DNA of 64,000 bases, from NCBI GenBank assembly GCA_963665235.2, contig CAXXLX010000001.1, positions 512,001-576,000 on the forward strand. The letters are read 5' to 3'. Below, piece after piece: positions 25,659 to 44,500 of the stretch. This DNA comes from Candidatus Poribacteria bacterium. Lineage in GTDB: Bacteria; Poribacteria; WGA-4E; WGA-3G. The stretch's first letter is position 1. Each line of letters starts with the position of its first letter. The translations under genes and the position numbers were made by a program. Under the pieces are notes generated by a model. The model was given only the letters and a program-made list of their open reading frames with translations, made no database searches and was not told where the DNA came from.

Positions 25659-26948
25659 CTAAAGGCGTGTGCTTCTTTGCCTCCTCAGGGGAGGCTTACT
25701 TGATTTGAGCCCCGAAAACGGTGACCACTTATCAAGTCGACGCAGGTGCGGATTAAACCGAACACCTGTGGGGGATACCACAGCCCCGACTACAGGGTTG
25801 AAAAGCCAGCCCTGATACTTTGTCAAAATGTTGCTTGCCCACACAACGTCTCTGTGTCCGTTCCAACCGCATTTAGAACAGTGGTAATTTCTGCCACTCG
25901 GCTTCTTGCGATTACGGCAACTCGGACAAGTTTGTGAGGTATAGGCTTCGTTTTCTGTCTCAACGTTGATGCCTACCGCTTTTGCTTTGTAGGTTATCAG
26001 GTGTTCGATTTTTGAGAAAGACCACTGGTGCAACTTCTGATTGGCGTTTTTGCTATAGTTAATAGATTGTCGTATGTGCTTAATGTCACCAATGACAATC
26101 GTTTCTATCCTTCGCTCTCGGCAGGAAGAAACAAATCGAGACGTGATTTTGTGACGCATATCACGTAATTGATTAGCAAGCGATGCAAGCGTTCTATCTT
26201 TAGCACGTTTTAGTTTTTTCCAACGCTTGCTATAACGTTTGCACCTTGATAGTTTTTGGTTGATTTTCGCCTTAAACTTTTCGCAATACCTTGCTTTACT
26301 TCGGATTTCGCGGCCGTTATAAATCTCGGAATTAAGTCCATCAAAAGCAACAATCGGATGTATTTCGCCCATGTCCACAGCAACCACAGGACCCGCTTTT
26401 ACTTTTGTCCGCTTCGGTTGCGTTACGTAGGTTGCGTGGAACTCGTATTGTTTCGTGGTTCGGTTATAGACAAGTGAGACTCCAGCGGGCACTTTCTTAT
26501 GGAACTTCTTATCAATCTTAATCCAGAGTGGGTCTCTGCCTTTGCCCAGAGAAAGCCGTAGCTTACCGTGCTTGTAGGTGATACCTGTAGCACGCCACGT
26601 GAAAGTATGGAACTTATGCTTTGGAGGCTTTGCTTTGGGATTAGAAGCTTTATTAGAAAAGAAAGAACGCCTTGCACCGCAATAGTCGTCTATGATTGCC
26701 TGAACGCTATGGGCATGGCAGGGATACCGCTTGAATTTGAGATATGCCTTAAGTCCACCGTCTGAAATCCAAAAGCCTTTTCGCCTGTGTGTTTTGAACG
26801 CAAGCGATACCGTTTTTGAATAGATACGACCGCCAAGCCGATTCATCTCGTCTAACTGCTCTGTAGGCTTGGCGGTTCCTATGATATAAGTGAGATAATC
26901 ATTTTTGGACCTAGACATTCTTTTCATCCTCAATATACTTTTTGACAA
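25659..26948 (-). CDS. tnpB: TnpB RNA-guided endonuclease
   Basis: VAVDMG, IVIGD, NEAYTSQTCPSC, CSKC, HRDVV. Confidence 0.93.
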   Translation of the reverse strand: MSKSILRMKRMSRSKNDYLTYIIGTAKPTEQLDEMNRLGGRIYSKTVSLAFKTHRRKGFWISDGGLKAYLKFKRYPCHAHSVQAIIDDYCGARRSFFSNKASNPKAKPPKHKFHTFTWRATGITYKHGKLRLSLGKGRDPLWIKIDKKFHKKVPAGVSLVYNRTTKQYEFHATYVTQPKRTKVKAGPVVAVDMGEIHPIVAFDGLNSEIYNGREIRSKARYCEKFKAKINQKLSRCKRYSKRWKKLKRAKDRTLASLANQLRDMRHKITSRFVSSCRERRIETIVIGDIKHIRQSINYSKNANQKLHQWSFSKIEHLITYKAKAVGINVETENEAYTSQTCPSCRNRKKPSGRNYHCSKCGWNGHRDVVWASNILTKYQGWLFNPVVGAVVSPTGVRFNPHLRRLDKWSPFSGLKSSKPPLRRQRSTRL

Positions 26949-27324
26949 CTTCTAAGGATACACACCCAACCGACGATATGAATTTGGAACGCGTCCACAG
27001 AGAGGGTAAACCGGATTTTAGGTGTGGAAATCCCTCACGCAAGACTTTAGAGGTGAAACCTTTTAGCATCCAAACTGTCCGAGTGACTGGCACTTTCGGA
27101 TTGGTTTCTATGATAAGATGCACAGGGTCTTCCATCACCTCACTGGCACACACCTTAAAATCTAAATCGGTTTGTTTGGAGCATATCAGATGATGCAACC
27201 GTTCTTGTATAGGTTCGGTTAAAACCTTGCGCCGATACTTCGGACACCAGATAACAGGATACTGACAACTATAGACAAGGTTCGTATCAGAATACCAACT
27301 CTTTTCTGGGTTCTTAATAAACAT
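26911..27324 (-). CDS. tnpA: IS200-type Y1 transposase (HUH motif altered)
   Basis: IWCPKYRRKVL, EDPVHL (canonical DHVH), LKGFTS, SLWTRS, VKKYI. Confidence 0.9.
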   Translation of the reverse strand: MFIKNPEKSWYSDTNLVYSCQYPVIWCPKYRRKVLTEPIQERLHHLICSKQTDLDFKVCASEVMEDPVHLIIETNPKVPVTRTVWMLKGFTSKVLREGFPHLKSGLPSLWTRSKFISSVGCVSLEVVKKYIEDEKNV

Positions 27325-27487
27325 TATACTATATCCTTTATCTGTTAGTTTCTCTAATATAGGATAACATATTTTTTAGATAATGTCAACTATTTTAGCT
27401 GTCACAGAGGCACGGGCGTTACGGGGTTGGACCCACAGCTAAAGCAGTGGGATTGTTAAGTGAGTCCCTTCAGTTTACGAATAGCAG

Positions 27488-30400
27488 TTATTTAAGCAGT
27501 TGAAACTGCATTTCTGCTGTGCTGTGTAGCTGTTTAATCAGGATAGCGTCTTTTTCGTGAAGGTACCGCCATCCGGATGTGACATCTTCTAGGGACTCAA
27601 CTTGCGGAATATCGTAAGGCGCGTCCTCTTTATCTGCATCATGCTCGGCACCCTCTGTTTGTGCGGGGTGAGTCGGGTGTGCACGAATGAGAGATGGGGC
27701 TTGTCCGTACCCGGTAATCAGTGTGTGACTGATTTCGTTTTCCGCGTAGTTCAGTGTCCACTTTAGTTCCCCTTTTCGGGAGGTGTTAACATCTTCCGGT
27801 TTCGCGCCGGAGCTGAGATGGATTGAGCCTGCAATTGCGGTTTTGATGCCCGGGTCAAGTCCGCGGAGCGTATAGACATTAACCATAATATCCTCAGGAT
27901 TGAGATGCGGTCCCTTGCCTTCGGTGCAGAATCCGTAGAATCCATCGGGGTATGTGCCTTTCAGTTCACCCTCTGTCCACTGCTGGTACATTGCACTTAT
28001 GGTGATGCCTTCAGCAATGTCGCGCCATTTTTCATCCCGTTTGTGCCGGTCCAGTTGTTGCAAATAGTAGGCATAGACCAGTCCGTTCCACTGCACTGGT
28101 ACCCCGAACCATGGGTGCGTATGAAACGTTGTGCCGAAAACGGGTATGGAGCCGAACAGCATTCCCGGTCGGTCCGGCAGATACCAATGATATAGGAAGG
28201 GTAGGCCCGCCTTAGCCCAGTATTCCGCGCGTTTCAGATACGATTTATTTCCGGTGATTTCGTGTGCCTCAATGTATGCCCCAATTGCATAGGCGGCAGC
28301 GAGAATATCCGGCTCATACAATGGGCATTCCCATGTTTGGGCACCCCGCGGCACCGAAAAACGGTTCATGAAGGCGAGTGCTTTTTTACCCGCTTCGAGT
28401 GAGACACTGTTCCCGGTGATGCGTGCATGTTTCAAGAGTTTTAGGGCATTCACAGCACACGTTCCGAGGACAACATCGCCCGGTGTTCCGAGGCTTTCTG
28501 TCCGTTCCGATGCTGGTTGAAACGCCCAGCTGCCATCCGCTGCTTGCGATGATAGCAAGGGTGCCACTTCGTCTTCATAGTGTGCCAATGCGGCCTCTAA
28601 GTGTCCGACATAGAATGGAAACTCTCCGCTGAGAATATGACATGAACCGCGGGCTACCAAAGCTGCCGGGCCGCCTTCGGCGACCGTTTTATCTGCTATC
28701 TCCATGACTCGTGCCTTAACAGGGTCAGATTTGGTGATGAGGTAATCGTACCAAAGTAAGGTTGCAAATCCCGGTTCGTTCTGTGAGGGCCAATCGGCAC
28801 AGTGTCGCGATTGCCGTGCCTCTGCATCCCAGGTTGTGTCCATGAACCCGTGCCGTGAGAGGAGTAGCTCCTCTTCATCGCTGCGCGGTGGGTTTAGCGG
28901 TGCTGGGGTGCCATACGCGGATGTCCAATGCGTTACTGCGTCTAAAATTGTGGTATTTCCATCTGCAATAATTTCACACGCCAAGGAGATAGGACGTTCC
29001 GGGGTGAATGTATAGGCTGTCTCAGCAACCCGTTCATTCTCCTTGACCCATTTCGGTACAGTGGGTAAGAAGAGTCCCATTAAATGATTTTTCTCTCGGT
29101 GATACGAATTCGGGGAGGCGAATACAGCGGAGACGTTGTGTTCCTCGCCATCCCAACTTTCCAGGGGATTCCAAGCGATACCGACAATTGATTTCTGCAA
29201 CTCAACCGCCATAACAGGAACAGTAATTTTATAGGGGTGCGGGACTAACCGGTTGTTGAGCGGAGGTGCTGCGTCTCTGGGATTTGAAGAGGGTTCTTCG
29301 TTTTCTAAGAATTCCAGCCCGGGAAACAGCGCAGCCGCTTTTTTATCGCGCATGCTTTTATGTCCTGCATAGATTTCTGTTCCTCGGAAAGCGAGCAACT
29401 CCCGGGGGCTATCCACCGTTAAGCGATATGCTGCTTTGATACGTCTAGCATCTTCAGTGAGCGTTAGCAGGAGTTGAAGCGTCCATGTTACGCCATCGGC
29501 ATCCTTCTGTTCATCGGATAGTCGGACAATAGCTTCGCCGAGGCTGTTCCCTGATAGGTAAACTTCACTTGGAACAAAAGTGAGATTCTGCTGTGTATCT
29601 GTCCGAGCTCCCTCCTGCTCGGGCTGTTCTTTTGATTGAGAAATGTAGGTTGCTTCAGCGATTGTTTTGGAGGTTGCTACTTGGTGATAGGTATTCCCTT
29701 TCGCTACGAAAACGGCATAATACTCAAAGCCTTCCGGTATGTCTATTTCTTGTGAGCGGAGGCTATCGCGCTGTGTGCCATTGTGAACCAAAACGATGCG
29801 GAGATGTTTATTGCCCATCACGACGTGTTCGTCCTGTTTGTAGGTATGGAGCTCCGGTATCACTTTTGTTTCAAGTTTCGGTAATACTGGTCGGATGTCA
29901 ACTGTACCCTTTACCTGTTTCTCACCGGTATGTTGCTGTGACTTCAGCGTAACACTGAATTCGGCACTATTTGAATGTGAAATCCCGTTTGCCTGCCAGA
30001 ATAACGTCGTTGTCTCACCGGGGGCGAGTGCATTCACGTTGTGTGTAGGTTTATCACGTTTGAGTTTCAGCTCGCTGATACTCAGACGTGTCTTGCTGTC
30101 CTTGGTGAGGGGCCCCGCCCCGGTATTTTTCAGAGTGCATTGTACTTCAAACGCCTCCCCTACACCGACAACAGCGGATGTTGCGCCGACGCTGACTATC
30201 TCTAATCGCGGTTGTGCTGCGTAAAGCGTTAAGTCGAGCGGCTCGTCTGCTAATTGCTTATAGATTTCACCTGCAATTTCGGAAGCAGGGGTGAAATCAG
30301 CACGATTGAACGTAAACACGCTGTGCTGATTCTCGTCGAATTCGGCAATAGCAATACCGCATTGCAATTCCGGTGTGGATACCGCTCTCCGCCTCCCTCT

Positions 30401-31543
30401 GCCCCTCGTACGGGTACGCTTCCTATCACGTCCTTCACCCCTTGTAGTTAGCTTCAGAAGTGTCGGTTTACCCCATAGTGCCCACGCGTAGCTGCTATTT
30501 CCTTCAACGTTACAGTGCGTGATGAAGGTGATGTTCACTGTTTTATCCGCGTAATCTGTTAACTCTATCCCGTTTTCCGCCCAACGGCATTCGGTTGACA
30601 CAGCGTCAAAATGCGGTTCGCCCGAAATTTCGATACAGAACTTAACCCCGCCCGGTGGTCGCTCCGCGTCATCAAACACGATGCCATCACGGAGCCCGAC
30701 ACTGAAATGGAGAAAAAGTGCTTCGTTCTCGGCAACGGAAGGGAGTGCTAATTCGTAGTTAATTCGGGCAGCATCGGTTGATGATGGGTGTCCAAACAGG
30801 GCAGGTTTTTTTACGCCGCCTGCTGAATCTGCCAAGCTTGCTGATACCTGCTCCGCCCCCTTATATGTGCTATCTTCAAACATCGCTACGAAATCGTACA
30901 CTTCCTCGCTTGTCCCCAGCTTATAAGACACCTCAGGTTCACTTGGGCCGGGCGTTTCTTTATCGTCAGATGCGGCTTCTGATTCTGCAGTCTCACCATC
31001 CGTAGACGCGCTTTGTAAGGGCTCAATCGATTCTAAAGGTTTAGATATCTGATCTTCTTCTGTAGGCGTGCTCTCCGGAGCATCAGATGTTACTTCAGCT
31101 GTCTCTGCCTCGGCCGCTTCAGGCGTTTCAGTAGGAACGTGCTCCTGCTCGCCATTTTCCACATCTGAACTCTGTTCTGTGGGGGCATCATCGCCCGCGA
31201 CTTCTTCAACAGGGTCAGCAGAATCAGGGTCAGGCGTTTCAGTAGGAACGTGCTCCTGCTCGCGACTTTCCATATCCGAATCTTGTTCTGCTGGGATATC
31301 ATCGCCCGCGACTTCCTCAACTGGCTCAGCAGAATCAGGATTAGGCGTTTCAGTAGGGACGTGCTCTTGCTCGCGACTTTCCATATCCGAATCTTGTTCT
31401 GCTGGGATATCATCGCCCGCGACTTCCTCAACTGGCTCAGCAGAATCAGAGTCAGGCGTTTCAGTGGAGGCGTGCTCCTGCTCGCGATTTTCCACTACGG
31501 GTTGTTCAAGTTCTTCCTCGTCATTATGTGTTTCTTCTTCCAT
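27488..31543 (-). CDS. Large hypothetical protein: acidic repeat N-terminus, beta-sandwich region, C-terminal alpha/alpha-barrel-like region
   Basis: 1363-aa ORF; probable start MEEETH with AGGA; SSQAADGSW, YLKRAEYWA suggest a glycosidase/prenyltransferase-like barrel (tentative). Confidence 0.7.
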   Translation of the reverse strand: MEEETHNDEEELEQPVVENREQEHASTETPDSDSAEPVEEVAGDDIPAEQDSDMESREQEHVPTETPNPDSAEPVEEVAGDDIPAEQDSDMESREQEHVPTETPDPDSADPVEEVAGDDAPTEQSSDVENGEQEHVPTETPEAAEAETAEVTSDAPESTPTEEDQISKPLESIEPLQSASTDGETAESEAASDDKETPGPSEPEVSYKLGTSEEVYDFVAMFEDSTYKGAEQVSASLADSAGGVKKPALFGHPSSTDAARINYELALPSVAENEALFLHFSVGLRDGIVFDDAERPPGGVKFCIEISGEPHFDAVSTECRWAENGIELTDYADKTVNITFITHCNVEGNSSYAWALWGKPTLLKLTTRGEGRDRKRTRTRGRGRRRAVSTPELQCGIAIAEFDENQHSVFTFNRADFTPASEIAGEIYKQLADEPLDLTLYAAQPRLEIVSVGATSAVVGVGEAFEVQCTLKNTGAGPLTKDSKTRLSISELKLKRDKPTHNVNALAPGETTTLFWQANGISHSNSAEFSVTLKSQQHTGEKQVKGTVDIRPVLPKLETKVIPELHTYKQDEHVVMGNKHLRIVLVHNGTQRDSLRSQEIDIPEGFEYYAVFVAKGNTYHQVATSKTIAEATYISQSKEQPEQEGARTDTQQNLTFVPSEVYLSGNSLGEAIVRLSDEQKDADGVTWTLQLLLTLTEDARRIKAAYRLTVDSPRELLAFRGTEIYAGHKSMRDKKAAALFPGLEFLENEEPSSNPRDAAPPLNNRLVPHPYKITVPVMAVELQKSIVGIAWNPLESWDGEEHNVSAVFASPNSYHREKNHLMGLFLPTVPKWVKENERVAETAYTFTPERPISLACEIIADGNTTILDAVTHWTSAYGTPAPLNPPRSDEEELLLSRHGFMDTTWDAEARQSRHCADWPSQNEPGFATLLWYDYLITKSDPVKARVMEIADKTVAEGGPAALVARGSCHILSGEFPFYVGHLEAALAHYEDEVAPLLSSQAADGSWAFQPASERTESLGTPGDVVLGTCAVNALKLLKHARITGNSVSLEAGKKALAFMNRFSVPRGAQTWECPLYEPDILAAAYAIGAYIEAHEITGNKSYLKRAEYWAKAGLPFLYHWYLPDRPGMLFGSIPVFGTTFHTHPWFGVPVQWNGLVYAYYLQQLDRHKRDEKWRDIAEGITISAMYQQWTEGELKGTYPDGFYGFCTEGKGPHLNPEDIMVNVYTLRGLDPGIKTAIAGSIHLSSGAKPEDVNTSRKGELKWTLNYAENEISHTLITGYGQAPSLIRAHPTHPAQTEGAEHDADKEDAPYDIPQVESLEDVTSGWRYLHEKDAILIKQLHSTAEMQFQLLK
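31125..31490. repeat. ~120-bp coding repeat x3
   Basis: REQEHVPTETPxPDSAEPVEEVAGDDIPAEQDSDME repeated. Confidence 0.85.
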
Positions 31544-31688
31544 TTTTCCTATGAGAAAATGTTGGAAAAACGTCAGCATTTCATATCTCCTCTGCTCAAA
31601 GTAGTAGGCATTTTTGAGTATTAGGGCAAGCAGCCTGCTCCTAAGGTTTCCGTAACAACGTTATAGAAGCGAGCTCGCGATTTACAAG

Positions 31689-32393
31689 CTATTGCTTTTC
31701 TTGCCACCGCTTTTTTTGCTGCTTCATTTCAGCGTTGAGAACAGGGTCAGATGATGGCGTTTGGTTTGCCGCGTCAATGAGCCAAACCCCGTCTTCGCTC
31801 TTCAGCACCGGTTTCCGTTGTTCAACAGGTAGCACGTCAAACGGTTTATGCGGCTCTATCTGATACCAATATGCGACAGAAGATGTCTCATTGCTGAGAT
31901 GGTTGCCGTGTCCGTGCTCAATTGTCACCCGAATCTCTTTCTCAAAACGGATGGGATTTTCAAGATGATAGACATACGAAGTTTGGTAACCGTTGGTATC
32001 GCTCTCGTGAATGGATGAACCGTTATGCGCAAACGCATTGCGTTGCATCCCCCACGCCTGATTGAGATAATCTTCTGAGCCGGTGCCGTGCAAATCCGGT
32101 GGCCACTTATAGCCATCTATCCAAATCATATCATCGCCTTCACCCCACCATGTGCCTTGGAAGTTGGTAACCGACAGATTACAACCGATATAGTGCCCTC
32201 TCCCTTCGGCAGACAGGATAAGATAGTTGTTATCCCATGCGAGTCGTTCCGCATTGATGATATCCGCTTCCGCCGTGTTGACTTTGATTTCGTGTCCCCA
32301 GCCATCACACGGATTTTCGCGATGAAATTGTGCATGAAAATGTGCCACATCCTCACCGTGGGGTGTCGGGTATAACTCGTAAACCATCAACAT
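31689..32393 (-). pseudogene. C-terminal part of a DUF2961 / GH172 glycoside hydrolase
   Basis: GRGHYIGC, WWGEGDD, GTGSEDY, VTIEHGH, SSVAYWYQ; the N-terminal part is not found before or after the adjacent IS. Confidence 0.75.
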
Positions 32394-32462
32394 AAGTCAT
32401 AGTTCAATTTTCCTATATATGCATCACACTGCGAATTCATGTTGTAGTGATACTCACAACGC

Positions 32463-33752
32463 CTAAAGGCGTGTGCTTCTTTGCCTCCTCAGGGGAGGCT
32501 TACTTGATTTGAGCCCCGAAAACGGGGACCACTTATCAAGTCGACGCAGGTGCGGATTAAACCGAACACCTGTGGGGGATACCACAGCCCCGACTACAGG
32601 GTTGAAAAGCCAGCCCTGATACTTTGTCAAAATGTTGCTTGCCCACACAACGTCTCTGTGTCCGTTCCAACCGCATTTAGAACAGTGGTAATTTCTGCCA
32701 CTCGGCTTCTTGCGATTACGGCAACTCGGACAAGTTTGTGAGGTATAGGCTTCGTTTTCTGTCTCAACGTTGATGCCTACCGCTTTTGCTTTGTAGGTTA
32801 TCAGGTGTTCGATTTTTGAGAAAGACCACTGGTGCAACTTCTGATTGGCGTTTTTGCTATAGTTAATAGATTGTCGTATGTGCTTAATGTCACCAATGAC
32901 AATCGTTTCTATCCTTCGCTCTCGGCAGGAAGAAACAAATCGAGACGTGATTTTGTGACGCATATCACGTAATTGATTAGCAAGCGATGCAAGCGTTCTA
33001 TCTTTAGCACGTTTTAGTTTTTTCCAACGCTTGCTATAACGTTTGCACCTTGATAGTTTTTGGTTGATTTTCGCCTTAAACTTTTCGCAATACCTTGCTT
33101 TACTTCGGATTTCGCGGCCGTTATAAATCTCGGAATTAAGTCCATCAAAAGCAACAATCGGATGTATTTCGCCCATGTCCACAGCAACCACAGTACCCGC
33201 TTTTACTTTTGTCCGCTTCGGTTGCGTTACGTAGGTTGCGTGGAACTCGTATTGTTTCGTGGTTCGGTTATAGACAAGTGAGACTTCAGCGGGCACTTTC
33301 TTATGGAACTTCTTATCAATCTTAATCCAGAGTGGGTCTCTGCCTTTGCCCAGAGAAAGCCGTAGCTTACCGTGCTTGTAGGTGATACCTGTAGCACGCC
33401 ACGTGAAAGTATGGAACTTATGCTTTGGAGGCTTTGCTTTGGGATTAGAAGCTTTATTAGAAAAGAAAGAACGCCTTGCACCGCAATAGTCGTCTATGAT
33501 TGCCTGAACGCTATGGGCATGGCAGGGATACCGCTTGAATTTGAGATATGCCTTAAGTCCACCGTCTGAAATCCAAAAGCCTTTTCGCCTGTGTGTTTTG
33601 AACGCAAGCGATACCGTTTTTGAATAGATACGACCGCCAAGCCGATTCATCTCGTCTAACTGCTCTGTAGGCTTGGCGGTTCCTATGATATAAGTGAGAT
33701 AATCATTTTTGGACCTAGACATTCTTTTCATCCTCAATATACTTTTTGACAA
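32463..33752 (-). CDS. tnpB: TnpB RNA-guided endonuclease
   Basis: Same motifs as copy 1. Confidence 0.93.
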   Translation of the reverse strand: MSKSILRMKRMSRSKNDYLTYIIGTAKPTEQLDEMNRLGGRIYSKTVSLAFKTHRRKGFWISDGGLKAYLKFKRYPCHAHSVQAIIDDYCGARRSFFSNKASNPKAKPPKHKFHTFTWRATGITYKHGKLRLSLGKGRDPLWIKIDKKFHKKVPAEVSLVYNRTTKQYEFHATYVTQPKRTKVKAGTVVAVDMGEIHPIVAFDGLNSEIYNGREIRSKARYCEKFKAKINQKLSRCKRYSKRWKKLKRAKDRTLASLANQLRDMRHKITSRFVSSCRERRIETIVIGDIKHIRQSINYSKNANQKLHQWSFSKIEHLITYKAKAVGINVETENEAYTSQTCPSCRNRKKPSGRNYHCSKCGWNGHRDVVWASNILTKYQGWLFNPVVGAVVSPTGVRFNPHLRRLDKWSPFSGLKSSKPPLRRQRSTRL

Positions 33753-34128
33753 CTTCTAAGGATACACACCCAACCGACGATATGAATTTGGAACGCGTCC
33801 ACAGAGAGGGTAAACCGGATTTTAGGTGTGGAAATCCCTCACGCAAGACTTTAGAGGTGAAACCTTTTAGCATCCAAACTGTCCGAGTGACTGGCACTTT
33901 CGGATTGGTTTCTATGATAAGATGCACAGGGTCTTCCATCACCTCACTGGCACACACCTTAAAATCTAAATCGGTTTGTTTGGAGCATATCAGCTGATGC
34001 AACCGTTCTTGTATAGGTTCGGTTAAAACCTTGCGCCGATACTTCGGACACCAGATAACAGGATACTGACAACTATAGACAAGGTTCGTATCAGAATACC
34101 AACTCTTTTCTGGGTTCTTAATAAACAT
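33715..34128 (-). CDS. tnpA: IS200-type Y1 transposase (HUH motif altered)
   Basis: Same motifs as copy 1. Confidence 0.9.
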   Translation of the reverse strand: MFIKNPEKSWYSDTNLVYSCQYPVIWCPKYRRKVLTEPIQERLHQLICSKQTDLDFKVCASEVMEDPVHLIIETNPKVPVTRTVWMLKGFTSKVLREGFPHLKSGLPSLWTRSKFISSVGCVSLEVVKKYIEDEKNV

Positions 34129-34346
34129 TATACTATATCCTTTATCTGTTAGTTTCTCTAATATAGGATAACATATTTTTTAGATAATGTCAACTATTTT
34201 AGCTGTCACAGAGGCACGGGCGTTACGGGGTTGGACCCACAGCTAAAGCAGTGGGATTGTTAAGTGAGTCCCTTCACTATCAATTATAACACATCCATAC
34301 AAAAAAGCAACAGAAAAATCTATTTCTCAGCCGCTGTCCCGATTAT

Positions 34347-34844
34347 CAAGTCTTCCGCTACAAAACCCCCGTGCTTTAGCTGGGGGATGTAGTAGCGGCG
34401 CATGAGCTAAAATTTTAATTTGACTTTTGCATTAAAATGTGGTATAATATATATATCATCAGTGGTTCGGATTACCACCTTCAACGCCACCAATGTTGAA
34501 GTTCCGAACCTCAACCTATGGTAGGGTTGTGTGCTGATGTTCTGGCGATACCCAGTCAATATCCACATTTTTGTGCAATGCTTTCGGTATCCAAAAGACG
34601 GGTCATGCTGCATTGGATACCAAAGCACTGATTCACAAGCATAAAGAAGGTGCGAAGCACGAGGGCAGGGCATTGTCCTTTGAGTTAGGGGCAGTAAGAC
34701 TTGGAACAGCCCAAGCATCTCCGTTGAGGATGTCCTCGGTGGGACCTCGGACGTTCACACGTCTGAAAACCACAATCCAATAGCTAACGCGTAGCGGAAC
34801 TTTTTAAAAGAATCTCCCTTGCTTTAGCTGGGAGAGTATGTCAA
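34347..34844 (+). mobile_element. Non-autonomous IS605-type element (PATE-like) with promoter and TnpB-type right-end RNA, no intact ORF
   Basis: TTAT|CAAG.. left end with hairpin CCCCCGTGCTTTAGCTGGGGG; right end GAATCTCCCTTGCTTTAGCTGGGAGAGTATGTCAA; internal GGCAGGGCATTGTCC..GTAAGAC..CCGTTGA typical of tnpB 3' ends. Confidence 0.78.
34420..34448 (+). promoter_or_regulatory. Near-consensus sigma70 promoter
   Basis: TTGACT-17 nt-TATAAT with extended TG. Confidence 0.75.
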
Positions 34845-35066
34845 GTACTCAAACTTGACTATCAACCCTGTAATGAGACGCAGTGTTTATTGCCACAGGT
34901 GTTAGATATTCCGTTGAAATTGCGGTAAATTGATGGGTTTCGCTTTTTTGGCGATTAGCGATTGGCGATTAGCAAATAGCAAGAGGAAGAGGGGTTTGAC
35001 GCGCAGCAGAGATATGCTTAGCATCACAACCTTCTTGCTAATTGCCAAACTGCCAAAGAAGGAGGT

Positions 35067-35425
35067 ATGATTATGTTTTCACGGCTTCAAGCTCATCGGG
35101 ACAGACGGAAAAGACGATTCGATGAAGCTAGAACCGAAGGAAAAGCCGAAGGTAAAACCGAGGCTTACCGAACGCGAGTTTGAAAAAAGTTTTGACCTAG
35201 AGCGTTCTCTGGTAGTTTTAGCAAAAAACAGCACAAACTAGGAAGTATGTGCTACAATTATGCTGCTTTTTTCTCGGTGAAACAGGTTTAGAGCAAACGG
35301 ATATTTATTATCAAGCTCACGTTTACCGAGAAATCGCTGAATGGAATAGCAGACGGCTCAACGCACTGGCACGAAATGAACCATTCACCGAACTGTTCCC
35401 TGAACCGCCTGACACTACTCATTAG
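35067..35425 (+). pseudogene. Small EGKAEG-motif protein (Rpn C-terminal-like) interrupted by a MITE
   Basis: AAGGAGG RBS; removing 35171-35328 gives MFSRLQAHRDRRKRRFDEARTEGKAEGKTEAYREIAEWNSRRLNALARNEPFTELFPEPPDTTH*. Confidence 0.75.
35171..35323 (+). mobile_element. MITE, 153 bp, TIR AACGYGAGYTTGA, 5-bp TSD TACCG
   Basis: AACGCGAGTTTGA...TCAAGCTCACGTT flanked by TACCG twice; inverted homologue at 49541-49694. Confidence 0.88.
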
Positions 35426-35528
35426 CGATTGGCGATTGGCGATTGGCAAGAAATATAAGAGGGTTCTTTCTCTTGCTAATTGCCAACTGCCAACTGCAAC
35501 CTTAACAATATTGTAGGCTAAGTTTATC

Positions 35529-38500
35529 CTACCTGTTAGATTTTACAGATGCCCAGGTCCGGAACTGTTTGCCAGAGGCGGATACATGTCCACGCATCCG
35601 AACCGTCTGCAGCTGTTCACGCACACCGCTAAACGACACATCCTCTATACGATAGTAATACGAAACATTCGGCTTCGCTGTTGTGTCTTTCCATTCATAC
35701 TGCTGACGCTCACCGGTCGTGCCAGCACCCTGAATTAGCTCAGCATTAATCTGTTTGAACGCACCGGTCCGCGACTCACTGCGATAGATATTGAACCCCG
35801 CATTGTCTAACTCGGACTCGGTCGTCCACTTCAGCACAACTTCTGTCCCTGTGAACAGCGCATCGAAATGCGACAACGATACAGGTAAATAACCCCCCTG
35901 ACGATAGCCCGGATTACCAATATCTGTGCTATGTCCCCAGTAAGTTCTAAAACTGAGTTTCAAATCCTTCGCTATTTTCCAACTTGAGAGTTCTGTGCCG
36001 GGAAGCGGTGCCCCATTTTCATACTTACGGATTAATGAATTTCTATATCCCTCTAACGTTTTGCCAGCGGGCAGTTGCCAGGCGGGTTTGTCCATCGTCT
36101 TGGCATCACCATCAAGGTTGCCAATCTTATCAACCATTTTACCGTTGGCATCGGACAGCATCAGACTAAACCCGGCACTACTTAACAACAAATATCGGTT
36201 TACGTTAAATAGTTCACTTATACCGGGCATGTCTGTGTGCTGCACTGACAAATCGTACACTTTGTGCTCTGGGAAATGCCCAGAGTTGGAGCTTTTCTGC
36301 GTTACGATTAGCAACGTCTGTTTCGGGCCGACGTGAACGCCCTCAAAGGTGAAACCCCACGTTGTGTTTCGCAACGTGTTCGGTTCAGGTTTCACTTCTA
36401 AGTTAAACTGCCACCCTCTCAGGTCAACAGTTTTGTTAGAGGTATTGTAAAATTCTATCCACTGCGGGGCTGCACGACCGAAGTCTCGCGTAGCGAACAT
36501 TAGCTCACTGATAGAAACCGGACCACTCGGCAGATTCTTGCCCTTCGGGTAATCGTTGAGATGGCCGGGGGTGCCGAGACTGGTTGTCTTCGGGGCATCC
36601 TTATCGTAGCCGCGCCCCTCCTGGTATCCGCTGGCTGTCCACGCCGCTGCGAGATAGCCGGGCAACTTCTTCGTTGCGGTCGTGCCGGGTATTTTCTTAT
36701 CGGTCCGCCGCCACGCTGCATCCAGGGCGAAGACTGGACGTATTCCTGTCGGTTTCTGAATATACAGGGGCCACATCAACGTTTCGTGGTCCAGATTGTT
36801 CGGCCAATAGGTGCTGGCTACATCAACAATCGCTTCGGAGGTGCCAATTCTATCCTTCTTCTCACGCAAAGTGAGAAGGTATTTCTCCTCGACCGGAAGC
36901 GGAAGTTTCAACGCTTTGGTGGTGATATACCTTGAGACGTTCCAGCTTTCCAGAACAGCCTCATCCCAGCGTCCGGTATAGATGTCAATTCCCGCTGCGA
37001 TGGCGGTTTTCTCCGTCGCACTGTTGAGAATCAAAAGGATATGGTTCGGCAGCAACTCGTAACTTGGAAGTGTGATAATCTTTTTCTCTTCCAGGGTCTT
37101 GCCGTTGCCTGTTACGATGCCGATTTCCCAATCTCCAAGATTAACGCTCCGCTGTCCTACGTTCTTCAGTTCTATCCAGTCATTTTTATCCTCGGTGCCG
37201 TTGTATATCTCGTTGAAGATGACTTTGCCGAAATCGGAGCCATATTCCTCTGTAGACCCTGTGTCAACCAGTTGCGACTCGGTTTCAAAATCAATCGTTA
37301 TACTCACATCTGCAGCAGGCCCATTTCGGACACCGTCTGTCCCCGCATTCACCTTCACAGTGAGGACGATTTCGCCAGCAGTATCAACAGGGGGCGTGAT
37401 GGTAACCGTGTAGTCCGTGCCGCTGCCTGTCAAAGTGAATGTCGCATCGTCTATGCCATACATCCGAGTTGTCGTCAATGTCATATCGCCCAATTCAAAC
37501 CCGTTGACAGGTTTGGAGAAGGTAATATCGACATCAAACGGACCCGTCTGCACATCTTGCGGCACTGTGAAGCGGACCGTCGGTACTGTTGTATCAAAAG
37601 CGATACTTTCGGATGTTCTAACGGCAGTCGGCACATCATACACACCATCGTTTGCAGCATCAGCACGGACTTGAACCTGTAACGTGCCTTTGGCATTGGC
37701 GGGCACGGTGATTGTGGTTGTATAGTTGGCACCTTCACCTGTCAATACTGATGAAACGGTGCCGCCGCTGGTATCGGCACGCGTTGTGATAAGGGTAATA
37801 TCATCTGTTTCAAACTCCGTGACAGGTTTGGAGAAGGTGATACCGACATCAAACGTGTTGTTAAGTTGCGTTCCCGAAGGTTCGCTGAAAACTAGCGTCG
37901 TCGGATTCGTATTCACAGGTGGCGTGTTAACCGGGTTCGTATTCACAGGTGGCGTGTTAACCGGGTTCGTATTCGCAGGTGGCGTGTTAACCGGGTTCGT
38001 ATTCGCAGGTGGCGTGTTAACCGGGTTCGTATTCGCAGGTGGCGTGTTAACCGGGTTCGTATTCGCAGGTGGCGTGTTAACCGGGTTCGTATTCGCAGGT
38101 GGCGTGTTAACCGGGTTCGTATTCGCAGGTGGCGTGTTAACGGATGTATCAAAATTTACCGATACACTGGTATCTGCAACAGGTCCGTTGCGCACGCCAT
38201 CCGTCGCTGCATCTGCTTTCACGGTGAGGGCAATATCCCCCGCAGCATTCGCAGGTGGAGTGAGGGTAGCCGTGTAGTCGGTGCCGCTGCCCGTCAAAGT
38301 GAATGTCGCATCGCCTGTGCCACTTGTCCGAGTTGTTGTCAATGTCATATCGCCTACTTCAAACCCGGTGACAGACTTCGAGAAGGTGATACCGACATCA
38401 AAGGCACTCGCCTGCACACCTTGCGGCACTGTGAAACTGACCGTCGGGAGTGTCGTATCAAAAGCGATACTTGCCGACATTTGAGCGGTAGTCGGCACAT

Positions 38501-41500
38501 CGTGTGTGCCATCGTTGGCAGCATTTGCAGCAATTGAAAGCGTGGCACTTCCTGCCGCATCGGTTGGCGATGTAATCGTAGCTGTCCAAGACGTACCCGA
38601 ACCGCTCAACGATACCGAGGCAGTGCCAGAGGTGCTCGCCACTGTGATGTCACTTGCCGCAAACCCGGTGACCGATTTAGAGAAGGTAATACCAACATTA
38701 AACGTGTTGGCGCGTTGCGTCCCCGAAGGTTCACTGAAAACTAGCGTAGCCGGGGTCGTATTCACAGGCGGTGTGTTAATCGGATCCGAAAGCACCGGGG
38801 GCGTGTTAATCGGATCTGTATTCAGAGGCGGCTTGCTAACCTGTGTATCAAAAGATACCGATACACTCGCATTTTCAGCCGGTCCGTTGCGCACACCATC
38901 CGACGCTGCATCCGCTTTCACAGTGAAAACGACTCGACCGATAGCATCCGCAGGCGGGGTGAGGGTAGCCGTGTAGTCGGTGCCGCTACCCGTCAAAGTG
39001 AATGTCGCATCGCCTGTGCCACTTGTCCGAGTTGTTGTCAAGGTCATATCGCCTACTTCAAACCCAGTGACAGACCTGGAGAAGGTGATATCGACATCAA
39101 ACGGACCTGTCTGGACATTTGGCGGCACTGTGAAACTGACCGTCGGCGTTGTAGTGTCAAATGTAATAGCAGCGGAGCTGACGTTGCTTTCAGGTGCACT
39201 GCGGGCACCATCCGTTACTGAATCGCCTGAGATTTCCAACGTGACAGCACCTTTTGCCTCCGTGGGCGAGGTAACTGTAGCGGTATAAGAGGTGCCTGAA
39301 CCGCTGAGCGTCACTGTGGCATCGCCGGAGCCATTGGTGTGTGTTGTGTTCACCGTTATGTCACTTGCCTCAAAACCTGTGACCGATTTAGAAAAGGTAA
39401 TCGGTACATCAAATGTATCTGCTACCTGTGTGCCCGGGGGTTCCGTGAAGCTGACCGTTGCCACCGTGGTATCGTAGGCGATGGGTTGTGATGTCTCCGT
39501 GGTTGCCGGCACCTCATTTGCCCTATCATACGCGGCATGTTTGCCGACAGCTAATGTCACCGTGCCTTCGGCTGTTGTCGGTGAGGTCACCGTTGCGGTG
39601 TAAGACTTGCCGGAACCGCTCAACGTGAACGTGGCATTGCCGGAGCCGCTGGTGTGGGTTGTGGCAATTGTGATGTCACCCGCTTCAAACCCTTGGACAT
39701 CTTTGGAGAAGGTAATCCCAACGTCAAACGTTTTCGCTATCTGGACACCCTTCGGTTCACTGAAATTCACCGTGCCTTGTGTCGTATCAAAAGGGATAGG
39801 ATTAGACACTGCTATGTTTGCTGGGGCAGTGCGTGTACCATCCGTAACAGCATTTGCGGCGACGTAAAGGATGATGATACCTTTGGCATTTGTCGGTGAG
39901 ATGACCGAGGCGGAGTAGTCAAGGGATAAGCCCGATATGACCAACGTCACTGAGGCTGTGCCCGTGCTACTCGTCACGGTGATGTCGCTTGCATCAAACC
40001 CCGTAATATTCTTAGAGAAGGTAATCGGAACGGCAAAGCCGCTGCCTAACTGTGTGCCTACGGGTTCATCGAAACTCACCGTTGCCACCGTCGTATCAAA
40101 ACTAATCGCATCGGAGGTCGCTTTACTTGCTGGACCGGTGCGGGTGCCATCTGTTACCGAGTCTGCCGCAACTTCCAAGGTGATAGTCCCTTTCGTTGCC
40201 GTGGGAGATGTCACCGTTGCGGTGTAGGAAGTACCCGAACCGCTCAATGACACTGAGGCATTGCCACTGCTACTTGTCACGGTGATGTCACTCGCAGCAA
40301 ATCCTGTGACAGACTTGGAGATGGTAATCCCAACGTTAAACGTGTCTCTGTATTGTGTGCCTACAGGTTCTGTAAAGTCTACCGTTGCGACCGTCGTATC
40401 AAAACTAATCGCATCCGATGTCGCTTTACTTGCAGGACCCGTGCGCGTGCCATCCGTGACTGCATTTTTCGCAACTTCTAAGGTGATGGTGCCTTTGGCT
40501 GCCGTGGGTGAGGTCACCGTGGCGGTGTAGTCTTTGCCTGAACCGCTCAATGACACCGAAGCAGTGCCGGTGCTACTTGTCACTGTAATGTCACTGGCAG
40601 CAAATCCTGTGACAGACTTGGAGATGGTAATCGGAACGTCGAAAGTATTTGCTACCTGGATGCCTGCCGGTTCTGTAAAGTCTACCGTTGCGACTGTCGT
40701 ATCAAAACTAATCGCATCCGATGTGGCTTTACTTGCTGGACCTGTGCGGGTGCCATCCGTAACAGCATCTTTCGCAACTGCCAAGGTGATAGTCCCTTTT
40801 GCTGCCGTGGGTGAGGTCACCGTGGCGGTGTAGTCTTTGCCGGAACCGCTCAATGACACAGAGGCAGTGCCGGTGCTACTTGTCACTGTAATGTCACTGG
40901 CAGCAAATCCTGTGACACTCTTATTGAAGGTGATAGGCACATCAAACGTATTTGCTACTTGTGTTCCTGCCGGTTCTGTGAAAGTCACCGTTGCAACTGT
41001 TGTATCAAAACTAATCGCATCGGAGGTGACTTTGCTTGCAGGCCCCGTGCGCGTGCCATCCGTAACAGCATCTTTCGCAACTTCCAACGTGATAGTCCCT
41101 TTCGCTGTTGTCGGTGAGGTCACCGTGGCGGTATAGGAAGTGCCGGAACCGCTTAACGTTACCGTGGCATCACCTGAGCCGCTTGTGCGCGTCGTCGTTA
41201 CCGTAATATCGCTCGCTACAAATCCTGTGACAGACTTAGAGATGGTAATCGGAACGTCAAAGGTGGCTCCATACTGTGTGCCTGCCGGTTCTGTAAAGTC
41301 TACCGTTGCGACTGTTGTATCAAAGCTAATCGCATCGGAGGTGGCTTTACTAGCAGGACCGGTGCGTGTGCCATCCGTGACAGCATTTTTCGCAACCTCC
41401 AACGTGATAGTCCCTTTCGCTGCCGTGGGCGAGGTAACCGTGGCGGTATAGGAAGTCCCCGAACCGCTTAACGTTACCGTAGCATCGCCTGAGCCGCTTG

Positions 41501-44500
41501 TGCGCGTCGTCGTCACCGTGATGTCGCTTGCTACAAACCCTGTGACGCTCTTAGAAATGGTAATCGGCACGTCAAACGTATTTGCTACCTGCGTTCCTTC
41601 CGGTTCGGTGAAGCTGACCGTTGCGACTGTTGTATCAAAGCTAATCGCATCGGAGGTGGCTTTACTAGCAGGACCGGTGCGTGTGCCATCCGTGACAGCA
41701 TTTTTCGCAACTTCCAACGTGATAGTCCCTTTCGCTGCCGTGGGTGATGTCACTGTGGCGGTATAGGAAGTACCTGAACCGCTCAACGTTACCGTGGCAT
41801 CGCCTGAGCCACTCGTGCGCGTCGTCGTCACCGTAATATCGCTCGCTGCAAACCCTGTGACGCTCTTGGAGATAGTGATCGGCACGTCAAACGTATCTGC
41901 TACCTGCGTTCCTTCCGGTTCTGTGAAATCTACCGTTGCGACTGTTGTATCAAAGCTAATCGCATCGGAGGTGGCTTTGCTTGCAGGCCCCGAGCGTGTG
42001 CCATCCGAGACTGAGTGCGCGGAGATTTCCAGCCTTACCGTACCTTTCGCTGCTGAGGGTAAAGAAATCGTAGCGGTCCAAGAGGTACCTGAACCGCTCA
42101 ACGTTACTGTGGCATTACCCGTGCCGCTTGTGCGCGTCGTTGCCACGGTGAGGTCGGGGCCAGCCTCCTTGGGATCCGGTACCGTTGAAAACCCAGTAAC
42201 GCTCTTATTGAAGGTAATCGGGAGGTCAAACGTTGCTGCTACTTGTGTACCTTCGGGTTCTGTGAAACTCACCGTCGGTACTCTGGTATCAAAAGAGATT
42301 GTCCCGGTTTCTGTCGCACTGGACGGTCCCTCATGTTCTCCTGTATCTTCCACAGCATCCGCCTGCATGGAGAGGTTAACGGTGCCTGCAGCATTTGCTG
42401 GAAGTGTGATTTTCGCTGTGAAGTTGGTGCCAGAGCTGCCGACGATTCCCCCGACACCTGGTATACGGAATGTCGCATCACCTGTACCACTGGTGCGCGT
42501 CGTCGTCAACGTCAAATCGTTTAATTCAAAATCCAAAATGAACTTGGAGAATTTAATCGGCACATCAAAATTGGTTACCTGCACACCTTGTGGCACCGTG
42601 TAGGTGGCTGACGGCGTTGTGTTGTCAAAACTGATAGACTCGGATGTCGTTGCACTGACAGGACCGCTGCGATTTTGGCTATCAGCTACTGCGTCTTTGG
42701 CGACTTGTAGTGTGATGGTGCCTTTCGTTTCCGTGGATGGCGTAACATTAACAGAGTAACCAGCACCTGAACCTAAAAGCGTAAACGTTGCATTGCCGGT
42801 GCCACTGGTAAGCGTCGTCGTTATCGTAATATCGCTGGCGGCAAACCCTGTGACAGACTTACCGAAGGCAATCGGCACACTAAACGTATCTTCGTATTGT
42901 ATGCCTACGGGTTCTCCGAAAGTCACCGATGGCGGTGCCGTATCAAAGCTGATAGCATCGGAGGTCGTTTTACTGGCAGGACCGGTGCGCGTGCCATCCG
43001 TAACCGAGTCTGCTGCAACCGCCAGTGTAACGGTGCCTTTCGCATTTGTCGGCACGGTGATTGCGGCTGTATAGTCTTTGCCGGAGCCGCTGAGGGTGAA
43101 CGTTGCATCCCCCGTGCCACTCGTGCGCGTTGTCGTGATCGTGATGTCAGCCGCTGCAAATCCTGTAACGCTCTTAGAGAACGTGATAGGCAGGTCAAAG
43201 TTAGTAGCTTGTCCCACCGTGGGTTCCGTGAAATCTACCGTTGCCACCGTCGTATCAAAACTAATCGCAGAAGAGGTGGCTTTGCTGGCAGGACCCGTGC
43301 GTGTACCATCTGTTACAGAGTCTGCTGCAACAGCCAACGTGATGGTACCCTTTGCTGCTGTCGGTGAGGTCACCGTGGCGGTATAAGATGAACCAGAACC
43401 GCTCAACGCCACCGTGGCATCCCCTGTGCCGCTTGTGCGCGTCGTCGTCACCGTGATGTCACTCGCTGTAAATTCTGCGACAGACTTAGAGATCGTGATA
43501 GGCACGGTAAAGGTGTTCCCGTACTGTGATCCTTCGGGTTCCGTGAAACTCACCGTTGGCGGTGTGGTATCAAAACTAATCGCATCGGAGTCAGTTTTCT
43601 GTGAAGGACCTGTGCGCGTACCATCGGTGACAGCACCTTTGGCAACTGCCAGTGTAACGGTGCCTTTCGCATTTGTCGGCACGGTGATTGTGGCTGTGTA
43701 GACTTTGCCAGAACCGCTGAGCGTGAACGTGGCATCGCCGGAGCCACTCGTGCGCGTGGTATTGATCGTAATATCGTCCGATGTAAACCCGGTAACGCTC
43801 TTAGAGAACGTAATCTCAACGCTGAAGTTCTTGGCTTGGACATCCGTGGGTTCCGTGAAATCCACTGTCGGCGGTGTCGTGTCAAAACTAATCGCATCGG
43901 AGTCAGTTTTCTGTGAAGGACCTGTGCGCGTACCATCTGTTACCGAACCCCCGGCGACTTCCAGCCTGATAGTGCCTTTCGCGTTTGTCGGCACGGTGAT
44001 TGTGGCTTTGTAGTCCTTGCCGGAGCCGCTGAGCGTGAACGTTGCATCCCCTGTACCACTCGTGCGCGTGGTGTTGAGGTTGATGTCAGCCGCTGCAAAT
44101 CCTGTAACGCTCTTAGAGAACGTGATAGGCAGGTCAAAGGTCGTTACCTGTGTGCTCGTGGGTTCCGTGAAATCTACTTTCGGCACCGTGGTATCAAAAC
44201 TCATCGCATCGGATGTCGCTTTGCTTGCAGGCCCCGTGCGCGTCCCATCCGTTACCGAGTCTGCGGCAACTTCCAAGGTGATAGTGCCTTTGGCTGCAGT
44301 CGGTGATGTCACCGTTGCGGTCCAAGAGGTACCTGAACCATTCAATGTGAACGTAGCATTGCCTGTGCCGCTTGTGCGCGTTGTTTTTATCGTAATATCG
44401 GCCGCTGCAAATCCTGTGACGCTCTTACTGAAAGTAATCGGCACGTCAAACGTATTTGTCACTTGTGTGCCTGTGGGCTCCGTGAAATCTACCGTTGCGA

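Follow-up and report, generated by a model that had tools for sequence, protein, structure and literature searches.

Palindrome-associated transposable elements (PATEs) are protein-less relatives of the IS200/IS605 insertion sequences (IS). According to Meers et al. (bioRxiv 10.1101/2023.03.14.532601), they 'often encode omega-RNAs' that have to be used in trans. In the passages of that preprint on Geobacillus stearothermophilus, PATEs have subterminal hairpin ends, no open reading frame (ORF) and an omega-RNA at the right end, with TnpB encoded elsewhere and TnpA mobilising them in trans. A similar arrangement is recognisable in a 498-bp element on a 64,000-nucleotide stretch of contig CAXXLX010000001.1 from a Candidatus Poribacteria bacterium, the whole of which is called the window here. 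This element differs from the Geobacillus PATEs in its poribacterial host, its TTAT target and its TCAA end, as well as in a pseudoknotted leader of ~185 nucleotides (nt) between promoter and scaffold, for which the same passages of Meers et al. hold no counterpart. We regard it, with a probability of about 0.8, as a guide-RNA-only derivative of an IS200/IS605 transposon whose conserved leader RNA is genuine; what exactly this leader does is much less certain than the identity of the element. Since Meers et al. describe PATEs with omega-RNAs, the guide-RNA-only element is of a known kind, and the conserved leader RNA is new.

The omega-RNA of ISDra2 provides another point of comparison. In the part of the study by Nakagawa et al. 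(2023, PMC10097598) that deals with this RNA, the nucleotides at -5 to -3, just ahead of the guide, form a pseudoknot with those at -103 to -105, and the scaffold, 231 nt long, can do without its 5' 115 nt, which are degraded. Measured against that account, the scaffold here likewise stops at the right-end boundary, takes its predicted guide from the flank and has the same pseudoknot topology. The two differ in scaffold length (116 nt in ISDra2, ~170 nt here) and in the target-adjacent motif (TAM), which is TTGAT there and TTAT here. Moreover, the 5' extension is coding in ISDra2 and a conserved fold in the poribacterial element, which has no overlapping tnpB ORF.

IStrons, as presented in the relevant passages of Zedaveinyte et al. 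(bioRxiv 10.1101/2023.11.20.567912), are IS605/IS607 elements that join a group I intron, TnpB and an omega-RNA. They resemble the element in placing a big structured RNA 5' and an omega-RNA 3' in one transcript, and protein-less derivatives of them exist. They differ in that the last base of the element is A, not G, and in that its structured domain spans just ~105-185 nt. No Rfam match to a group I or group II intron is found in window positions 32000-35600 or in seven diverse loci carrying the domain. Additionally, the element RNA is not expected to be spliceable from a host transcript, because it starts at an internal promoter.

The element and its predicted omega-RNA

The boundaries of the element read TTAT/CAAGTC...GTATGTCAA/, and BLAST finds nine full-length copies, 86-100% identical, in its own genome (4 contigs, 5.3 Mb). 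In a flank-inclusive alignment, TTAT precedes 9/9 copies, GTATGTCAA closes 9/9, and the 3' flanks are unrelated; no target-site duplication is seen in the flanks of these nine. Because the copies at C1:1018312 and C3:14408 have common flanks, the independent insertion sites number eight. The genome also contains one fragment and two decayed relatives, at C1:1843824 and C1:1298508. The element combines subterminal imperfect hairpins at both ends, with the loop GCTTTAGC in common and no terminal inverted repeats, a fixed target, the fixed right-end tetranucleotide TCAA and the lack of a protein gene, which are the marks of an IS200/IS605 element of the PATE kind. An earlier note on this DNA had placed both IS605-type ends within 498 bp, and the boundaries bear this out. 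Its interval of 34347-34864 began correctly and overran the true end at 34844 by 20 nt of flank. The further copies it had suggested looking for are the nine just described, together with relatives in other genomes.

An empty site was observed as well. When contigs from four public runs were placed on window positions 33900-35300 at 90% likeness, a joint 34346->34845 that skips exactly 498 bases appeared in two of the four (X1 and X2, one contig each). This joint is the scarless empty site expected of an IS200/IS605 element, and it counts as evidence of moderate strength. Features of the locus are listed in Table 1.

Table 1. Features of the 498-bp element and its immediate surroundings, in window positions.
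Feature	Position	Strand	Basis or remark
Whole protein-less IS200/IS605-type element (PATE-like), 498 bp	34347..34844	+	9 copies, 86-100% identity, unrelated flanks
TTAT target site, predicted TAM, directly 5' of the left end	34343..34346	+	same in 9/9 copies
Left-end subterminal hairpin CCCCC-GT-GCTTTAGC-T-GGGGG, presumed TnpA recognition site	34366..34386	+	read from sequence
Sigma-70-type promoter TTGACT-17-TATAAT with TG; predicted start ~34455	34420..34448	+	promoter scan
5' domain I: P1 closes a three-way junction (P2-P3, P4); pseudoknot; hairpin P5	34455..34563	+	covariation; model R3
5' domain II: small hairpin and long stem 34579-34628 with conserved apical motif AAAGACGGGUCAUGCUGCAU	34564..34638	+	helix 8 covariation
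Predicted omega-RNA scaffold, stem A (34661-34680) through the right-end hairpin to TCAA	34653..34844	+	model R2; MAFFT covariation
Scaffold pseudoknot, 5' strand GGCAU in the loop of stem A; partner AUGUC 34838-34842	34669..34673	+	RNAalifold
24-nt scaffold insertion, copy of a small dispersed repeat	34726..34749	+	complete in 3/9 copies
Right-end subterminal hairpin TCTCCC-TT-GCTTTAGC-T-GGGAGA	34813..34835	+	sequence; helix 6 of the scaffold alignment
Predicted 16-nt guide (flank GTACTCAAACTTGACT)	34845..34860	+	from omega-RNA architecture; 3' flanks differ among copies
Neighbouring separate IS605-type element, outside the 498-bp element	32448..34285 (ends approximate)	-	tnpA 33715-34128, tnpB 32463-33752, right end ending TCAC

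Protein-level searches of the interior came back empty. Comparison with the genome's own ORFs (blastx) gives no TnpB-like similarity, a hidden Markov model (HMM) of 12 resident TnpBs yields E-values of at least 1.2 against six-frame translations of five family members, and Pfam has no match in the element's two longest ORFs. A minus-strand ORF is disrupted in copies m5, m7 and m9, and ORFs are not kept in diverged copies. The interior was also considered as decayed tnpB coding sequence, as frame +3 recalls by eye a tail of the type '...NAAINILKEG'; with the HMM and blastx results given here, that proposal is unsupported.

The ends of the element have close relatives in the same genome. They match a 1409-bp tnpB-only IS, with 88% identity at element positions 1-109 (left-end hairpin and promoter) and 93% at positions 456-498 (right-end hairpin to TCAA). 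This IS is present in about 11 copies, with a 400-amino-acid ORF that is full length in nine and broken in two. Its TnpB carries the Pfam domains OrfB_IS605 (7e-21) and Cas12f1-like TNB (5e-20), and 10/10 inspected copies are preceded by TTAT and closed by GTATGTCAA. Three IS with both tnpA and tnpB have left ends 72-90% identical to that of the element, but their terminus is TCAC. Over 114 nt, the identity to the left end of the tnpA+tnpB IS is 88-90%; the TnpAs of these IS, one of which lies at C1:3153143, and of the neighbouring IS are Y1 transposases (Y1_Tnp).

The left end includes a promoter that matches the consensus at 11 of 12 positions and has an upstream TG; five promoter-like sites occur in the region, against 1.4 expected in shuffles. 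A promoter stands at the equivalent place in homologous elements of other genomes, and the tnpB of the 1409-bp IS lies behind one at the same left-end position. The near-consensus promoter proposed earlier is therefore there, and its description as the element's 'own' needs refining, since it is the left-end promoter that drives tnpB in the related full-length IS. No terminator-like site lies within 34200-35100. The predicted transcript 34455-34864 has a folding z of -4.77 (0/100 shuffles fold as well), and its 5' part, 34455-34640, a z of -3.54 (0/200 shuffles as good).

The region between the 5' domain and the TCAA end was aligned with MAFFT for 14 protein-less elements from five genomes (alignment A3), and a covariance model, R2, was built from these 14 scaffolds only, with no tnpB IS included. 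The structure tested comprises five nested helices and a pseudoknot. In this alignment 94.6% of cells pair, against 30-52% with slid partners; both sides change at 20 of 32 pairs, and the covariation score is reached by 0/500 shuffles. RNAalifold gives a long-range pairing of the first-stem loop GGCAU with AUGUC, 2 nt before the element end, which joins the loop of stem A to nucleotides -7 to -3 ahead of the guide. This pseudoknot is paired in 14/14 sequences and includes one double change (GAUAU with AUAUC).

R2 has 38 matches in the genome that carries the element. Scores are 110-114 bits (E ~1e-25) for the 3' ends of the tnpB-only IS, 42-46 bits for the tnpA+tnpB IS and 93-138 bits for the element's own copies, with 108 for the window copy and 127.6 for two insert-free copies. 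The last ~170 nt of the element are homologous to the tnpB 3' end of the 1409-bp IS, so that the tnpB-3'-like scaffold ending in TCAA (34841-34844), first noticed by eye, finds its relatives among tnpB genes. Because of this homology, the covarying stems and the TnpB-type pseudoknot, the prediction of an omega-RNA for a TnpB acting in trans, with TTAT as its TAM, is well supported by homology. The same function, with a TAM of about TTAT, had been proposed before, and this TAM equals the TTAT target in front of 9/9 element copies and 10/10 tnpB-IS copies. The predicted guide position also stays as it was first given. A cognate TnpB, which the earlier note had left to be found, can be named as that of the resident 1409-bp IS, since the 3' part of the element is homologous to this IS and both follow TTAT and end in GTATGTCAA; nine apparently intact copies of this candidate are present in the genome.

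From these features a mode of action can be sketched. The left-end promoter would start a transcript at ~34455 that runs through the ~185-nt leader (domains I and II), continues through the ~170-190-nt omega-RNA scaffold and passes TCAA into the flank, which would serve as a 16-nt guide. TnpB from the resident tnpB-only IS would bind this scaffold in trans. A Y1 TnpA from one of the tnpA+tnpB IS with matching hairpins would excise the element, and the rejoined site would then consist of TTAT plus guide. In other words, we infer transcription, trans-loading of TnpB and homing, as well as all functions of the leader discussed below. Guide-RNA-only transposons indicate that in TnpB systems guide and nuclease are modules that can be separated, a step toward CRISPR-like arrangements. 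The present case may serve as a clean natural example, with element, cognate nuclease, TAM and guide identified by homology and an empty site in the population.

The scaffold insertion of 24 nt, which the earlier note does not mention, is absent from 5/9 copies, partial in C3:14408 and complete in the remaining three. Because of this insertion and the lower R2 score, the window copy may be impaired.

The insertion belongs to a dispersed repeat with an 18-nt core, GATGTCCTCGGTGGGACC, in a ~28-nt identical unit that occurs at 21 loci in the genome. The repeat is found in at least four unrelated contexts, including two omega scaffolds and one multi-copy element (for instance, C1:1403184 and C2:342393), and is tandemly expanded ~13 times at C1:892828-893120. 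It behaves like a very small mobile insert. Similar 'small dispersed repeats' were reportedly described in cyanobacteria by Elhai in 2008.

Fold and distribution of the leader RNA

The stems of domain I are ATCAGT/GCTGAT (P1), GGTTCGGA/TCCGAACC (P2), TTCAAC/GTTGAA (P3) and CAACC/GGTTG (P4), and each is accompanied by compensatory changes in relatives. In an unfitted MAFFT alignment (first ~107 nt, 15 sequences), 87.7% of cells pair, against 37-51% with slid partners. P1 changes on both sides at 6/6 pairs, in a series that runs from CAUCAG/CUGAUG through CACCAG/CUGGUG to CCUGUU/AACAGG. The pseudoknot between the P2/P3 internal loop (J2/3, UACCA) and the P4 loop (UGGUA) is 97% paired, has one position with a UA:9 / AU:6 exchange, and reads UUCCAC/GUGGAA or UUCCAA/UUGGAA in other loci.

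A covariance model of element positions 109-292, R1, was made from the nine own copies. In the alignment fitted to it, 90.3% of cells of the 5' domain pair against 32-43% when slid, two-sided changes occur at 49 of 59 pairs, and 0/500 shuffles match this. For the long stem (helix 8) the count is 13 of 14 pairs, and the apical motif AAAGACGGGUCAUGCUGCAU is kept in 14 of 16 aligned rows. A long-range helix 1 in R1, which joined the 5' end to ACUGAU after the long stem, was rejected and replaced by the covarying P1. The multibranch fold and the long stem, both read from the letters in the earlier note, are upheld by these alignments, and the covariation it had named as a check is found in both RNA parts, 5' domain and scaffold.

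At E <= 1, none of the 4227 families of Rfam 15 matches the element in window positions 32000-35600 or the domain in seven diverse loci. The sole match in each scan, a weak one to a microRNA or to a long non-coding RNA, lies elsewhere and far below the gathering score, and is attributed to chance. Hammerhead, HDV-like and other small ribozymes were considered and rejected, since their conserved cores are absent from the junction by eye and Rfam gives no match. A 'Poribacteria-1' motif is said to have been listed by Weinberg et al. in 2017, and it may overlap with the leader, although no Rfam 15 model matches. The main text of PMC5737381 mentions neither Poribacteria nor IS605. A literature search returned no paper joining Poribacteria with TnpB, IS200, IS605 or riboswitch and none on a 'Poribacteria-1' RNA motif, and searches on orphan TnpB right-end RNA (reRNA) and miniature inverted-repeat transposable elements (MITEs) found nothing relevant. 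Judged by covariation, Rfam and presence in many genomes, the 5' domain is a real, structured and conserved RNA that matches no described family, much as the first suggestion of a possible new non-coding RNA had it.

Constraint on the leader can also be looked for within the genome. In one diverged copy, 86% identical overall, the promoter spacer has 25.7% substitutions and the linker 20%, and the values for domain I, domain II and the scaffold are 4.6%, 2.7% and 5.3%.

R1 matches occur in 6/112 genomes of the same family, own genome included. All 13 foreign R1 loci inspected have, in order, a left-end hairpin, promoter, domain, omega-like scaffold and GAGTATGTCAA (GAGTATATCAA in one copy), and none of the 13 contains an ORF. 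BLAST of the element against 40 relatives matches at the ends only, the interior being recovered by covariance models alone; distant blastn against a plasmid collection gives no match. A scan of a genome collection with the domain II motif returned 37 loci, where R1 confirms 12 matches in 11 loci, all in Candidatus Poribacteria, and the remaining 26 loci are chance matches. The corresponding scan of metagenome contigs gave 31 loci, none of them confirmed by R1. R3, a broader covariance model of domain I, matches in 57/151 genomes sampled from the phylum: 55/99 in the window's family, 1/26 in a second family and 0/25 in seven others. Matches per genome reach at least 25, in two genomes.

This distribution bears on the view that the element is simply a decayed deletion derivative of a tnpB IS, with drifting junk inside and an accidental fold. 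Its ends and promoter are indeed shared with a tnpB IS, and two decayed copies exist. Nevertheless, the interior holds no protein-level trace of TnpB, and compensatory changes across genera affect 49 of 59 pairs, a level no shuffle attains, with similarly high pairing on the unfitted alignment. The domain recurs in more than a third of the sampled genomes, and its homologues are only ~60% identical, so they are not recent transfers of one sequence. The view of a decayed element with a junk interior is highly improbable.

The contexts of the domain were examined by eye at 49 loci, namely 29 best-per-genome loci and 20 further ones. At 36 of them an omega-like scaffold and a right-end hairpin come after the domain. 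The scaffold is in most of these cases of another family, one that terminates in TCAC, and a full R2 match is found in only 4 of the first 29 loci. Some of the 36 are interrupted or have no left end, and two have downstream tnpB fragments from adjacent elements. Three further members of the TCAC type are present in the window's own genome.

In the same genome, a second protein-less IS605-type family (C1:1653663, C1:892517 and C2:751160) has a diverged domain I and another scaffold, which terminates in GGGTGCTATCAC and is similar to the right end found in the tnpB IS at C1:331162.

The other 13 of the 49 loci have no transposon end and show promoter, domain, ribosome-binding site and ORF in this order, with the ribosome-binding site 36-330 nt downstream of the domain. 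Among the genes behind this leader are an operon with a ParE-like toxin domain in its second gene (three genomes) and one for a protein of unknown family starting MKNGF.YE (three genomes). One ORF starts with a motif that we take to be that of a cytosine-5 methyltransferase; others encode secreted or unknown proteins. The domain directly follows the promoter in 13/13 foreign R1 loci and in most other inspected loci, and domain II, with the long stem, was observed only in transposon context. Because domain I is found with different scaffolds and ahead of ordinary genes, its sequence contexts mark it as a portable leader that is not peculiar to one guide RNA.

Upstream of MKNGF.YE, at loci L157, L191 and L194 from three Poribacteria genomes, a further conserved stretch of ~120 nt lies between domain I and the ribosome-binding site. 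It contains hairpins and a U-rich run and may be an expression platform.

Several points weigh against regarding the element as a mobile guide-RNA carrier with a conserved leader. The shorter side of the empty-site contigs amounts to only 30 letters, at 90% likeness, and repeats can create such joints; furthermore, runs X1 and X2 may be the assembly's own source, so that these contigs are not independent support. The acting TnpA is named from hairpin similarity alone, and the tnpA+tnpB IS with the matching left end terminates in TCAC, not TCAA. The window copy, with its scaffold insertion, scores below its insert-free counterparts. Finally, within-genome conservation of the leader comes from one diverged copy, and as a single comparison it makes a weak argument for constraint.

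Candidate roles of the leader

The favoured interpretation is a cis-acting leader or switch, serving for control or stabilisation. The leader would be dispensable for cleavage and would act, as a separate portable module of Poribacteria, in cis on the amount of downstream RNA. It would most likely be a conformational switch or a stabilising or anti-termination leader, and it would be trimmed off during maturation of the omega-RNA. Riboswitch aptamers and the put and EAR leaders resemble it in combining a junction with a pseudoknot in a compact fold at the 5' end of a transcript, in the action in cis proposed for it and in possible alternative pairing. The leader is unlike them in having no Rfam match, heterogeneous downstream genes and no identified expression platform. 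The put and EAR RNAs are leaders that make RNA polymerase resistant to termination.

A constitutive leader of this sort might protect the transcript from 5'-end-dependent or exonucleolytic decay, or might resist Rho-dependent or intrinsic termination so that transcription reaches the guide. The domain starts within a few nucleotides of the predicted start, its 5' strand is paired in P1, and it stands upstream of unrelated cargo. Some ~390 nt would be untranslated here, compared with an omega-RNA at the end of a translated mRNA in the parent IS, and no terminator lies between promoter and flank. A simple hairpin would suffice for such protection, however, and the loops, the pseudoknot and the duplicated P1 strand exceed that need; nor does Rfam give a match to known antitermination RNAs. 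A constitutive leader of either kind is thus quite possible, short of probable.

The duplicated P1 strand leads to the proposal of a riboswitch, in which the domain would sense a ligand or signal. P1 would compete with the downstream second copy of its 3' strand, gating the guide RNA here and other genes elsewhere. In a 29-sequence alignment, P1 is paired in 171/174 cells, and its 5' strand can also pair with a segment 7 nt further, overlapping the P5 5' arm, in 133/174 cells (126 of them Watson-Crick). No other register exceeds 65 Watson-Crick cells, but one other reaches 67% pairing with G-U counted, and for that reason the alternative pairing of P1 is suggestive only. By eye, the first partner is often G-U-rich and the second perfect. 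The two registers suggest two exclusive folds. The compact fold, the invariant unpaired nucleotides, the covarying pseudoknot and the position of the domain as a 5' leader of protein genes with a downstream ribosome-binding site all fit a switch. In contrast, no metabolic theme unites what lies downstream (unknowns and omega-RNAs as well as a ParE-like toxin operon and a putative cytosine methyltransferase), neither a terminator nor a platform sequestering the ribosome-binding site is identified, and there is no candidate ligand. A sensing role is accordingly put forward only tentatively. The same caution applies to a new riboswitch-like class that would gate a transposon guide RNA and, elsewhere, toxin-antitoxin, methyltransferase and other accessory genes, a prospect that seems rather doubtful at present. 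If the switch reading were true, this would be the first regulated production of an omega-RNA, and selfish elements would share a regulatory RNA with defence-type genes of an uncultivated phylum.

Another conceivable role is that of a guide-RNA module, in which the domain would stay attached and contact TnpB or the target, for example by aiding competition with the omega-RNA encoded in cis by the mRNA. The domain does precede an omega-like scaffold at most of the loci inspected by eye, and domain II is confined to transposon context. Against such contacts, domain I stands without a scaffold ahead of ordinary genes at the 13 leader-type loci, it is combined with at least two scaffold families, and R1 and R3 match no tnpB gene in the element's own genome. 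The dispensable 5' region of the ISDra2 omega-RNA, in the passages of Nakagawa et al. already cited, argues in the same direction. A lasting attachment to the guide RNA is therefore unlikely.

The significance lies less in the guide than in the leader, which is the more valuable result: a pseudoknotted RNA of ~105 nt plus a second stem, widespread in Poribacteria. It is located at the very start of predicted transcripts for guide RNAs and several accessory genes. Whether it acts by switching, stabilising or anti-terminating, it would be a portable cis element long kept by selfish elements. It could also account for the way in which an untranslated guide RNA holds its own against the guide encoded in cis with the nuclease.

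Neighbouring elements and repeats

The IS605-type element next to the 498-bp element encodes proteins with Pfam matches to Y1_Tnp (5e-32) and to OrfB_IS605 plus the Cas12f1-like TNB domain. Its right end reads ...GAGTATCAC, and the contrast between TCAA in the element and TCAC in this neighbour, pointed out from the letters at the start, is real. A second copy of this tnpA+tnpB IS lies on the minus strand at ~25662-27375 of the window (C1:537662-539375), with a phmmer score of 986 bits to the TnpB of the neighbour.

Two other protein-less elements in the genome have the same left end and promoter. One, at C1:490757-491347 (L014), measures 592 bp and combines an unrelated ~400-nt interior with a related scaffold ending in GTATGTCAA. 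The other, from C1:470412 downward (L011), has a TCAC end, and five tandem repeats of ~30 nt (ACAAACTGGAAGTTTATGCTAC...) interrupt it.

Downstream of the element, summed contig depth reaches up to ~6000 at window positions 34934-35074 and 35169-35262, against ~48 in unique flank. Contigs skip 34976-35170 and 35005-35170, which may reflect further small repeats or MITE-like insertions. The IS cluster as a whole is flanked by very long minus-strand ORFs, at 27488-31579 (1363 amino acids) and 35529-45137 (3202 amino acids).

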